NCBI RefSeq assembly: GCF_041886205.1
Contig: NZ_CP169029.1
From: Escherichia coli
GTDB taxonomy: Bacteria; Pseudomonadota; Gammaproteobacteria; Enterobacterales; Enterobacteriaceae
Strand: one strand, 5' to 3'
Length of the DNA stretch: 64,000 bases
In this document: one piece after another, positions 33,001-36,000 of the stretch
Numbering within the stretch: the stretch's first letter is position 1
How the letters are laid out: each line of letters opens with the position of its first letter
Program-made: the position numbers

Positions 33001-36000
33001 ATAGTTCGCAGGTAATTCTATTGGTTCTTGGTTGTCGATACCAATAGTAATATGGTCTGTATCATTGGAGCCAATATCAATATAAGTAACTGAGGAATTA
33101 TTAATATTAAATCTATAAGGATCGTCGTTTACTCGTATGGCGTTTTTTATAAGCTCAAGTAGATGTTTAATACAGGTGCTTATTCCTTCCTTACCATTAA
33201 AAAGGTTTTTGAGCTCTTGTACTAATCCATTAACTTCATCATTGTTATTTTCATTAATGGATTCTGGGTAAGTTGCGCTGGTATTGTTGATTGAAATAGA
33301 TGGTAGCATGATTTTATTCCATTTTGATTGATTTGTTACAAATATATATTACCTAATGAAATAGACTATCAAAAAACGCTCATTTATTTAGAACCTATCT
33401 TTAATTTGAGTGTATGAGCGCACAATAGCCAGGGGGGGTTGAGTATCCTGGAAATTCAGAAAAGTAAACTCTTTGAGAAGGACGAGCAGAACGCCTGAAA
33501 ATATGCCTTTCCCTTCAGGTTTGTCTGTGGATACCGCTTATTGATTTGAAAGGGCAAGCTGCCAACAGGCTGTTTGCAAAACTCAGGAGGTAAGCAATGA
33601 GGACACTACTTTCGGTGAAGTGGGGGAGTTAAAGTCACCTGCTATGCAGGTGACTTTATCCAGGCGAACGTGTTATCAGAACGCGTAGTTAAAGTTAGTA
33701 CCGAACAGCCAGGCTTTACCTTCAGACTCGAAGGAATAAGCTGCCGGTCCTTCACCTTCAGTAAACTTCACATTCTGACCGTGCATATAAGATGCACCAA
33801 CGTCAATGGATGCATCTTCATTAAATGCGTAGGTTAACCCAGCACTTAACCACAAGCGATCCTGGTCAGGAATAGAAATAGAACGTTTATCGGCCGGAAC
33901 TGGGCTATCGTCATAGGCGATACCAGTACGGAAGGTCCAGTTTTTATCGTAATAGTAGGTTGTACCCAACGCGATACGATATGCGTCACGGAATCCTTCA
34001 TCTTTATAGAACAGAGTCTGGCCATTATCGCCTTTCGCTTTCAACTCTTGGAACTGGCTCCAACTGGTATAGGCCATGCTGTAGTGAATTGCCCACTGTG
34101 GCGCAACACGGTTATAACCTGAAACCTCCCACATCTCAGGTAAATTCAGCGTCAAGGACCCATTTTGGGTTGCACCCATTGTGCCATACGGTAAACCCAT
34201 GCTACCCAAAATGTTGTTCAGATTTGGGTTAATGGAACTTTTGTAATCCCCTTCGAAGTCGATTTTAACTTCTGAACGATAGGTTAGGCCCCAACGGTTA
34301 TCTTTATCCAGTTCATAAAGAATACCGGCGTTCCAGCCAAAGCCCCATTCGTCACCTTTCAGATGAGCAATTTGAGAGTCCGAGGTATTAATACCATTGG
34401 TTAGTGAAGCGGGTACACCTTGGGCAATCAACTGTTGAGACAACAAAGGCCCCAGCGAACCGGCGTAACGCTCAATTTTTGCCTTAGCGTATACAGCATC
34501 AAAACCAAGACCAAAACTCCAGCTATTGTTAAGGCGGTAGGCTCCGCTAAGGTTAAGGTTTATTGTTTGAAGATCGGTTTTACCGCCATAGATACCAGCA
34601 GCGTAGTTATCATTAAACTCCGTGGCCAGACCATAGTTTGAGGTAATAGAAGCCCCCCAACCAAACTGATCGTTAATAGGTGCTACGAAATGCAGGTTAG
34701 GCACCCACGCAGTTGGTGCAATATTATCTGCATCAGCACGCTGGCCCGTTAAATCGGAACGCCCAGAAATATCTACATCCGGGTCAATATAAACCGCACC
34801 CGCAGAAAATGTCGGGCGGTCAAACATGGTAATCAATGCGGGGTTACGGCTAACGTTACCTGCATCATCGGCAATTGCGCCTTCCCCTGAATAAGCCCGG
34901 CCCAGGCCAGAGGAAGAAAATTCGTTTAACTGAAAGCCTGCCGACCAGGCCTGGGTGGAGATAAGTGCCACTGCGACTGCGAGAGCAGACTTTGTAAACA
35001 GGGTTTTCTGGCTCATGACCATAACCTCAATGATTTATTTTTATACAAACTATGTTACGTGCTGTAACAGGAGCGCGAAGTGTAGGGTCTGAGGTACATC
35101 TTAGAAATCAGACCAGTGGCGAGAGTATAGGTCGGACCAGCTGTAATGTTGCAAGTATGTTTCTATCTTTTTTCAAATATGATCTAAGAAACGCGATCCA
35201 GCTGGCAAAATTTGGAGGTGGCGCACTCATGGATTCGGGTGAATTTTGTTTTAGATCATTTTTAAGTGTGATTTCGGTCACTTATCCGATTTTGCAGAAT
35301 TAACAACTGGAGCAGCACTTTCCGGAAGCGTAAAATATCCACAACGTTTATCTGGCACCTTGGGTGCACATACAGAGGAAATCAACGATGAGTAAATGTA
35401 GTGCTGATGAAACCCCGGTTTGCTGCTGTATGGATGTTGGCACCATTATGGACAACTCCGACTGCACCGCGTCTTACAGCCGCGTGTTTGTAAACCGCGC
35501 AGAAGCAGAACAAACGCTGGCGGCGCTGACTGAGAAAGCCCGTAGCGTGGAATCCGAACCGTGCAAAATCTCCCCGACTTTCACTGAAGAGTCTGACGGT
35601 GTGCGCCTGGATATCGATTTCATTTTTGCCTGCGAAGCTGAAATGCTGATCTTCCAGCTGGGTCTACGTTAATTCCTCTCGGGTACGTACGCCCCTGTCA
35701 GTTGCTGGCAGGGGCGTTTTCTTTTCTCTTCTTCTTTTCTCTCTGTGTCATAGCTCCCACTTTCCCTTTTCTCCACTTGGCTAAATGTAAAAAAATGGTT
35801 AAGACTATGATCAGGTCAGACCACTTTATTTATTTTTTACAGGGGAGTGTTATGGGTCAGGTTTTACCGCTGGTTACCCGCCAGGGCGATCGTATCGCCA
35901 TTGTTAGCGGTTTACGTACGCCTTTTGCCCGTCAGGCGACGGCTTTTCATGGCATTCCCGCGGTTGATTTAGGGAAGATGGTGGTAGGCGAACTGCTGGC

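Follow-up and report, generated by a model that had tools for sequence, protein, structure and literature searches.

FadR operators at the fadL and fadIJ promoters of an Escherichia coli chromosome

The question raised by this locus is whether three 17-bp imperfect palindromes lying upstream of fadL and fadI are authentic operators for FadR, the GntR-family, acyl-CoA-responsive regulator, or whether they owe their appearance to chance or to the promoters in which they are embedded. The original prediction had placed two FadR operators before fadL and one before fadIJ, and this arrangement was borne out by the agreement of published binding probes, matrix scores, conservation and a review (PMC9329746). 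The three 17-mers are almost certainly the authentic FadR operators of the fadL and fadIJ promoters (Table 1); they correspond to the already characterised K-12 operators in another E. coli strain and as such were already known.

The window, that is, the whole stretch of 64,000 nucleotides analysed, is part of an Escherichia coli chromosome, and its fadL-yfcZ-fadIJ region was near-identical to that of K-12, with the fadL-fadJ region in inverted orientation. The 1,101-base stretch spanning the three 17-mers had a match in 5,425 of 5,426 complete E. coli genomes; NZ_AP045833.1 showed 100% identity to this stretch and was collinear with the window at 99.98%, only from position 19830 onwards. The fadL side and the fadI side of the locus are two separate intergenic regions with yfcZ in between, and the presence of a strong intrinsic terminator after yfcZ means that fadIJ needs its own promoter. 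Both yfcZ and its terminator had been left out of the earlier account of the two promoters. An Rfam search found no RNA family in the fadL/fadI region, its sole match in the window being a tRNA at 29740-29811.

Table 1. Features of the fadL-yfcZ-fadIJ region and of the fabB upstream region in the window; mismatches are counted against ANCTGGTCNGANNTGTT.
Feature	Sequence	Position	Strand	Remarks
fadL CDS, long-chain fatty acid outer-membrane channel		33676-35016	-	RefSeq annotation
fadL FadR operator 2 (site 2, OL2)	CACTGGTCTGATTTCTA	35102-35118	-	3 mismatches; in gel-shift probe fadL-FadR-site2
fadL transcription start	A	35117	-	95 nt before ATG 35022, literature distance
fadL -10 hexamer, predicted	TATACT	35124-35129	-	-12 to -7 relative to 35117
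fadL FadR operator 1 (site 1, OL1)	AGCTGGTCCGACCTATA	35126-35142	-	2 mismatches; in gel-shift probe fadL-FadR-site1
ArcA-like direct repeat, putative	TGTTGCAAGTATGTTT	35147-35162	+	overlaps the conserved TTGCAACA -35 block of fadL
CRP-cAMP site, fadL/yfcZ divergent region		35253-35297	-	gel-shift probe fadL-CRP-site1 present verbatim
yfcZ (DUF406), between the fadL and fadIJ promoters		35388-35672	+	Pfam PF04175, E = 1.7e-35
yfcZ intrinsic terminator		35689-35717	+	13-bp stem, then T run; sequence analysis
fadIJ promoter, predicted		35744-35805	+	hexamers and start predicted from sequence and conserved blocks
CRP-like element of fadIJ, putative	TGTGT-N6-TCCCA	35744-35759	+	centre 35751.5, at -61.5
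fadIJ -35, predicted	TTGGCT	35777-35782	+	17-nt spacer to -10
fadIJ -10, predicted	TAAGAC	35800-35805	+	
fadIJ FadR operator	ATCAGGTCAGACCACTT	35810-35826	+	near-palindrome; 2 (- strand) or 3 (+ strand) mismatches; 26-42 nt upstream of fadI ATG
fadI-fadJ operon under the 35810-35826 operator		35852-39306 (fadI 35852-37162, fadJ 37162-39306)	+	annotation; conserved Shine-Dalgarno and ATG
fabB FadR activator site, fourth in the window	GGCTGATCGGACTTGTT	54598-54614	+	2 mismatches; 67-83 nt upstream of fabB ATG (54681)

All three 17-mers were found where they had been predicted and were identical to those of K-12; only the predicted number of mismatches to the consensus (3-4) had to be corrected, the actual values being 2-3. 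The fadL promoter of K-12 has the same 17-mers at the same distance from the ATG, along with the same -10 hexamer, flanking ArcA-like repeat and CRP site; its two operators are also 7 bp apart, with a centre-to-centre distance of 24 bp, whereas a gap of 8 bp is given for K-12 in PMC3460868. The fadIJ (yfcYX) operator of K-12 is likewise the same 17-mer, placed in the same yfcZ-fadI spacer and at the predicted -10/+1 region. Differences from K-12 nearby consisted of a T instead of a G at 35144, at a distance of two bases from fadL site 1, and of a T run between the fadI operator and the Shine-Dalgarno sequence, 3' of the operator, that is one T shorter here.

Gel-shift probes that bind FadR include the exact sequences of both fadL 17-mers. 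The site 1 probe reads GCAACATTCC-AGCTGGTCCGACCTATA-CTCTCGCC and the site 2 probe CTCTCGC-CACTGGTCTGATTTCTA-AGATGTACCTC (Feng and Cronan 2012, PMC3460868), and the same two probes were used in PMC4259882. FadR bound both of them with similar affinity (~50 nM; PMC3460868; PMC4259882) and was released by oleoyl-CoA or long-chain acyl-CoA (PMC3460868, Table 2), and fadL-lacZ fusions displayed FadR-dependent, fatty-acid-inducible expression of fadL (PMC3460868). Comparison with the mapped operators thus upheld the prediction for fadL, the 17-mers being both identical to K-12 and present in the probes. By analogy with these probes of identical 17-mers, FadR binding, its release by acyl-CoA and repression in vivo would be expected in this strain, for which our own observations comprise the identity with K-12, the matrix scores, the position in the promoters and the deep conservation.

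The position of the operators with respect to the fadL promoter followed from the published transcription start, 95 bp upstream of the ATG (PMC3460868). Site 1 is placed between the -35 block and the -10 hexamer, overlapping the first four bases of the latter, and carries the core GGTCGGACC with GGTCnGACC intact, whereas the only good half-site of site 2 is the left one. With this start, site 1 lies at about -25 to -9 and site 2 at about -1 to +16, an exact fit to the coordinates reportedly obtained by DNase I footprinting by DiRusso and co-workers in 1993; a text search of the literature for the OL1/OL2 coordinates gave no match. The putative ArcA-like repeat is 4-5 bp from site 1, and the ArcA site of fadL has been described as "5 bp from FadR site 1" (PMC3460868). 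Similarly, the CRP core TGTGA-N6-TCACT at 35267-35282 (centre 35274.5) is 157.5 nt from 35117, and the verified fadL CRP site was located "157 bp upstream" (PMC3460868). A simple sigma-70 scan called neither of the fad promoters and gave a single match (TTGCCA-18-GATCAT, 35208-35179, minus strand), situated upstream of the known promoter of fadL. The published start and the conservation were therefore used to place the hexamers manually.

For fadIJ, repression by FadR at a site overlapping the transcription start, FadR-dependent induction by long-chain fatty acids and a CRP site in the promoter have been summarised in the 2022 review, according to which the FadR sites of fadL and fadIJ both overlap transcription starts (PMC9329746). 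In our literature text search, neither a printed fadIJ operator sequence nor a measured start was found. The exact operator sequence is reportedly given by Campbell, Morgan-Kiss and Cronan in 2003. Judging from the promoter elements predicted in Table 1, transcription of fadIJ would start near A35813, and the operator would then extend from about -3 to +14. Operators were thus located at the -10/+1 region of a fad promoter for both fadL and fadIJ, in the latter case with overlap of both candidate -10 hexamers and of a predicted start.

Counting matches to the consensus ANCTGGTCNGANNTGTT performed no better than chance. With up to three mismatches, 20 matches were obtained in the window as compared to 14.4 expected (12 of 100 shuffles reached 20), and with up to two mismatches there were three, as compared to 1.2 expected (15 of 100 shuffles reached three); these three matches all sit upstream of FadR-regulon genes, namely fadL, fadI and fabB. 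Because these counts were non-significant, they were replaced by an independent matrix, symmetrised and built from nine FadR sites other than the three at issue: five of these (fadBA, fabA, fabB and the two sites of fadD) were taken from gel-shift probes in the literature, and the remaining four were identified upstream of fadE, fadH, fadM and iclR in K-12. The fadI site scored 18.7 bits and ranked first of 63,984 positions, a score reached by none of 200 Markov sequences. The fabB activator site, whose 17-mer is contained in the gel-shift probe fabB-F (PMC4259882), ranked second with 16.5 bits, also when fabB was left out of the matrix, and fadL site 1 ranked third with 10.25 bits. Site 2 of fadL came 18th, with 5.5 bits. 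In the matrix scan, which had been proposed as a check, fadL site 2 fails any reasonable threshold; from the sequence alone, the fadI site is unambiguous, fadL site 1 borderline and fadL site 2 not detectable. Other matches of at least 9 bits included those at 5291 and 25954, dismissed since they fall inside evgS and an IS3 transposase gene (mapped on NZ_AP045833.1), and one at 10115, in a stretch without counterpart in NZ_AP045833.1.

The palindromic core GGTCNGACC occurred twice in the window (0.48 expected), in fadL site 1 and in the fadI site only. All three 17-mers fit the 17-bp imperfect palindrome aaCTGGTCnGACC(T/A)Gtt, the FadR consensus of the review PMC9329746, site 2 weakly and through its left half-site only. 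This site is supported by its position, by cross-species conservation at a fixed 24-bp offset and by the experiments in K-12.

Conservation was analysed by scanning species-representative genomes with FadI, which yielded 80 Enterobacterales loci (Escherichia through Serratia, Yersinia, Photorhabdus and Hafnia). The fadI operator was the best matrix match within 300 nt upstream in 78 of the 78 testable loci, its core CAGGTCnGACC being invariant in all of them and its distance to the fadI ATG mostly 42-57 nt; in a 22-genus alignment of the fadI upstream region, no other 17-nt window was as conserved. Divergent linkage of fadL was found in 78 of the 80 loci, and the fadL sites kept a spacing of 24 bp and distances of ~126 and ~102 nt to the ATG in ~70 Enterobacterales loci, a two-site layout that ranged from Escherichia to Serratia, Rahnella, Hafnia and Yersinia. 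Site 2 (CACTGGTCTGATTT) was almost invariant across 23 genera and always 24 bp from site 1. In the alignments the operator blocks were invariant whereas the flanking sequence was variable, and all three sites are, judging from these comparisons, under constraint. Operator regions were essentially fixed within E. coli: the fadI 35-mer was identical in at least 5,279 genomes and the fadL 49-mer was present in 5,424, with visible variation at the site flank. Both fadL and fadI had been assigned to the FadR regulon in ~50 genomes by RegPrecise-type comparative genomics, and the conservation found here upstream of orthologues in relatives agrees with the RegPrecise-based regulon table.

This conservation could in principle be due to the core promoter (-10, discriminator and initial transcribed sequence) or to the site of another regulator instead of FadR, which we consider very unlikely. 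Site 1 does overlap the -10 hexamer TATACT, site 2 begins at the transcription start and the ArcA-like repeat abuts site 1; furthermore, the whole fadL promoter and 5' UTR are strongly conserved (mean column identity 0.82), with an invariant TATA(C/A)T at -10 and an invariant block, CTTGCAACA, at the ArcA-like repeat and -35. The 5' UTR also carries an inverted repeat that is conserved, at 35053-35069. As the entire promoter is conserved, the fadL operators, ranking 39 and 14 of 196 windows, are conserved above average but not uniquely so, and in the right arm of site 1 (CCTATA) it is impossible to tell conservation of the operator from that of the -10 hexamer. The left arm, however, belongs to the -35/-10 spacer, whose sequence is not constrained by RNA polymerase, and yet it stays a FadR half-site (CTGGTC or CAGGTC) in nearly all genera, which favours protein recognition over promoter constraint. 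In addition, no block of its region is more conserved than the fadI operator, whose full palindrome does not resemble any sigma-70 element, and FadR directly binds both fadL probes (PMC3460868). Chance resemblance to a loose consensus with no regulatory role, a reading that mostly applies to 35102-35118, is extremely improbable: it can draw on consensus counts that do not exceed shuffles and on the ~27 equal or better matrix matches expected per 64 kb for site 2 (2.7 for site 1), but all three sites are found in the two short intergenic spacers that immediately precede fad genes, the rough joint chance of two matches 24 bp apart in the 372-bp spacer is ~5e-4 (from per-position matrix rates), site 2 hardly varies and keeps its phasing in ~70 species, and binding of FadR to the identical sequences of K-12 was demonstrated by gel shifts (PMC3460868).

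The three FadR operators had also been thought to support the chosen start codons. This proved only weakly true: in fadI the operator helps to exclude upstream in-frame starts, and in fadL two ATGs are indistinguishable in this respect. The mechanical fadI ORF extends back to TTG 35702 and contains a further in-frame ATG at 35807; the terminator, the promoter and the operator fall within this longer in-frame ORF, and ATG 35807 is not conserved, its frame being broken by the length of the T run in K-12. The start of fadI is therefore ATG 35852, with conserved Shine-Dalgarno and ATG. In fadL the operators are uninformative because both candidate starts, ATG 35022 (MVMSQ) and ATG 35016 (MSQ), are downstream of them. 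ATG 35016 was invariant across genera, with GAGG 8 nt upstream, and the codon at 35022 was TTG or GTG in many genera; conservation thus favours 35016 over 35022.

The PdhR core GGT-N3-ACC is found in both the fadI operator and fadL site 1, each of which agrees with the PdhR consensus AATTGGTnnnACCAATT in 10 of 14 positions; a box at the fadI start codon (35856-35872), which a PdhR genomic-SELEX study (PMC7660256) proposed in order to explain its fadI peak, agrees in 7 of 14. Activation of fadIJ by PdhR has also been reported. That FadR operators may double as targets of PdhR, a paralogous GntR-family regulator, seems a rather doubtful proposition, and since the window holds 24 other 10/14 matches to the PdhR consensus we regard it only as a lead. 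If it were true, PdhR activation of fadIJ could result from competition with FadR for a shared operator, and pyruvate sensing and acyl-CoA sensing would be linked at one site.

With the three sites taken as FadR operators, and according to the standard model of repression by FadR, one FadR dimer would occupy each 17-bp imperfect palindrome when long-chain fatty acids are absent. At fadL, site 1 would fill the -35/-10 spacer and overlap the -10 hexamer while site 2 would cover the transcription start, and at fadIJ the single high-affinity palindrome would cover the -10/+1 region, so that RNA polymerase would be sterically excluded at both promoters. Import and activation of long-chain fatty acids by FadL and FadD would then give rise to acyl-CoA, which would bind the C-terminal domain of FadR; FadR in its acyl-CoA-bound form would leave the DNA, and fadL and fadIJ would be derepressed. 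Further modulation would come from activation by CRP-cAMP and repression by ArcA-P.

The operator of fadBA, ATCTGGTACGACCAGAT, has been crystallised in complex with FadR (1H9T/1HW2). It is a perfect palindrome of the same 17-bp architecture, with a TGGTnnnACCA-type core; in the nine-site matrix it scored 18.6 bits, which the fadI site equals, whereas the fadL sites are degenerate by comparison, site 2 having one good half-site only. The only fad promoters with two FadR sites are those of fadL and fadD, and only modest repression occurs there (PMC3460868). The activator sites of fabB and fabA share the same protein and the same motif with the fad operators; unlike these, the fabB site serves for activation and not for repression, and it is placed upstream of its promoter, beside a FabR site.

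Four FadR sites were placed in the window, and the significance of this lies mainly in annotation quality. Weak sites such as fadL site 2 cannot be validated by scanning for consensus mismatches alone; they also require evidence from position and conservation. Across Enterobacterales, the two-site fadL layout and the fadIJ operator proved to be fixed; this cross-species comparison, which also settles 35016 as the start codon of fadL, is of modest value. As regards the organism, both fadL, for the uptake of fatty acids, and fadIJ, for the second beta-oxidation complex, remain under the textbook control by FadR, CRP and ArcA in this strain.

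A fourth FadR site was present in the window, upstream of fabB, in addition to the two operators of fadL and the one of fadIJ (Table). This activator site ranked second in the window with the FadR matrix, its sequence was identical to that of the published fabB gel-shift probe, and a FabR-type palindrome region directly adjoined it on the downstream side. The PdhR core GGT-N3-ACC appeared in the fadIJ operator (35810-35826) and in fadL site 1 (35126-35142), with matches of 10/14 to the PdhR consensus, a score that is common (24 such matches in the window). The box GTCAGGTTTTACCGCTG (35856-35872), located within the first fadI codons and proposed as the source of the PdhR SELEX peak at fadI (PMC7660256), matched at only 7/14 positions. 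Judging by sequence, the FadR operator itself may be a target of PdhR.

Features located in the window.
Feature	Position	Strand	Remarks
YfdF allele	32047-33309	-	420-aa ORF, downstream of fadL
tRNA-Arg	29740-29811	-	
Inverted repeat TGTTAC-N5-GTAACA	35053-35069		fadL 5' UTR, about +48..+64
Sigma-70-like match TTGCCA-18-GATCAT	35179-35208	-	sole match of a simple sigma-70 scan
'fadL' CRP site	35253-35297		experimentally verified; 157.5 nt from fadL transcription start
fabB FadR activator site GGCTGATCGGACTTGTT	54598-54614	+	67-83 nt upstream of fabB
fabB	54681-55901		

The arms of the inverted repeat in the fadL leader were unchanged in 72 of the 78 Enterobacterales loci, whereas its 5-nt loop displayed 32 variants. 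Complementarity was kept by paired double changes (TGCTAC/GTAGCA in locus L069 and TATTAC/GTAATA in locus L026), and the Photorhabdus version contained one C-G pair and one T-G wobble. The repeat had been described as a 'CRP site' that did not bind CRP when tried (PMC3460868). The repeat resembles an mRNA hairpin or a site for an unknown regulator. Within the fadL coding region, GCAGTGGC (about 34966-34973, minus strand; codons about 15-17) was complementary to the 5' seed of RybB, an sRNA known to repress fadL.

Downstream of fadL, the YfdF allele showed 82-95% identity to K-12 YfdF, and no Pfam match was obtained for the ORF. The protein appears to contain a duplicated segment of some 50-70 residues, with residues about 77-129 recurring at about 145-197. 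For the stretch 1-29811, the closest annotated genome, which differed from the window by indels before position 19830, has an integrase-bounded island after the tRNA-Arg. This island carries an autotransporter, fragments of toxin-antitoxin genes and remnants of IS3, IS30 and IS911, and the csc sucrose operon lies in it beside dsdA.

Between fadL and yfcZ, the sigma-70-like match preceded the known fadL promoter and belonged to a block (TTTGCCA...GATC.CGTTT...ATCA) that is conserved from genus to genus; the match could represent a second promoter or sites for OmpR or other regulators. The distance of the CRP site from the fadL transcription start was considered atypically far by its authors (PMC3460868). 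The start codon of the divergent gene yfcZ follows this site at a distance of only about 113 nt, so the site's main role may be at a yfcZ promoter.
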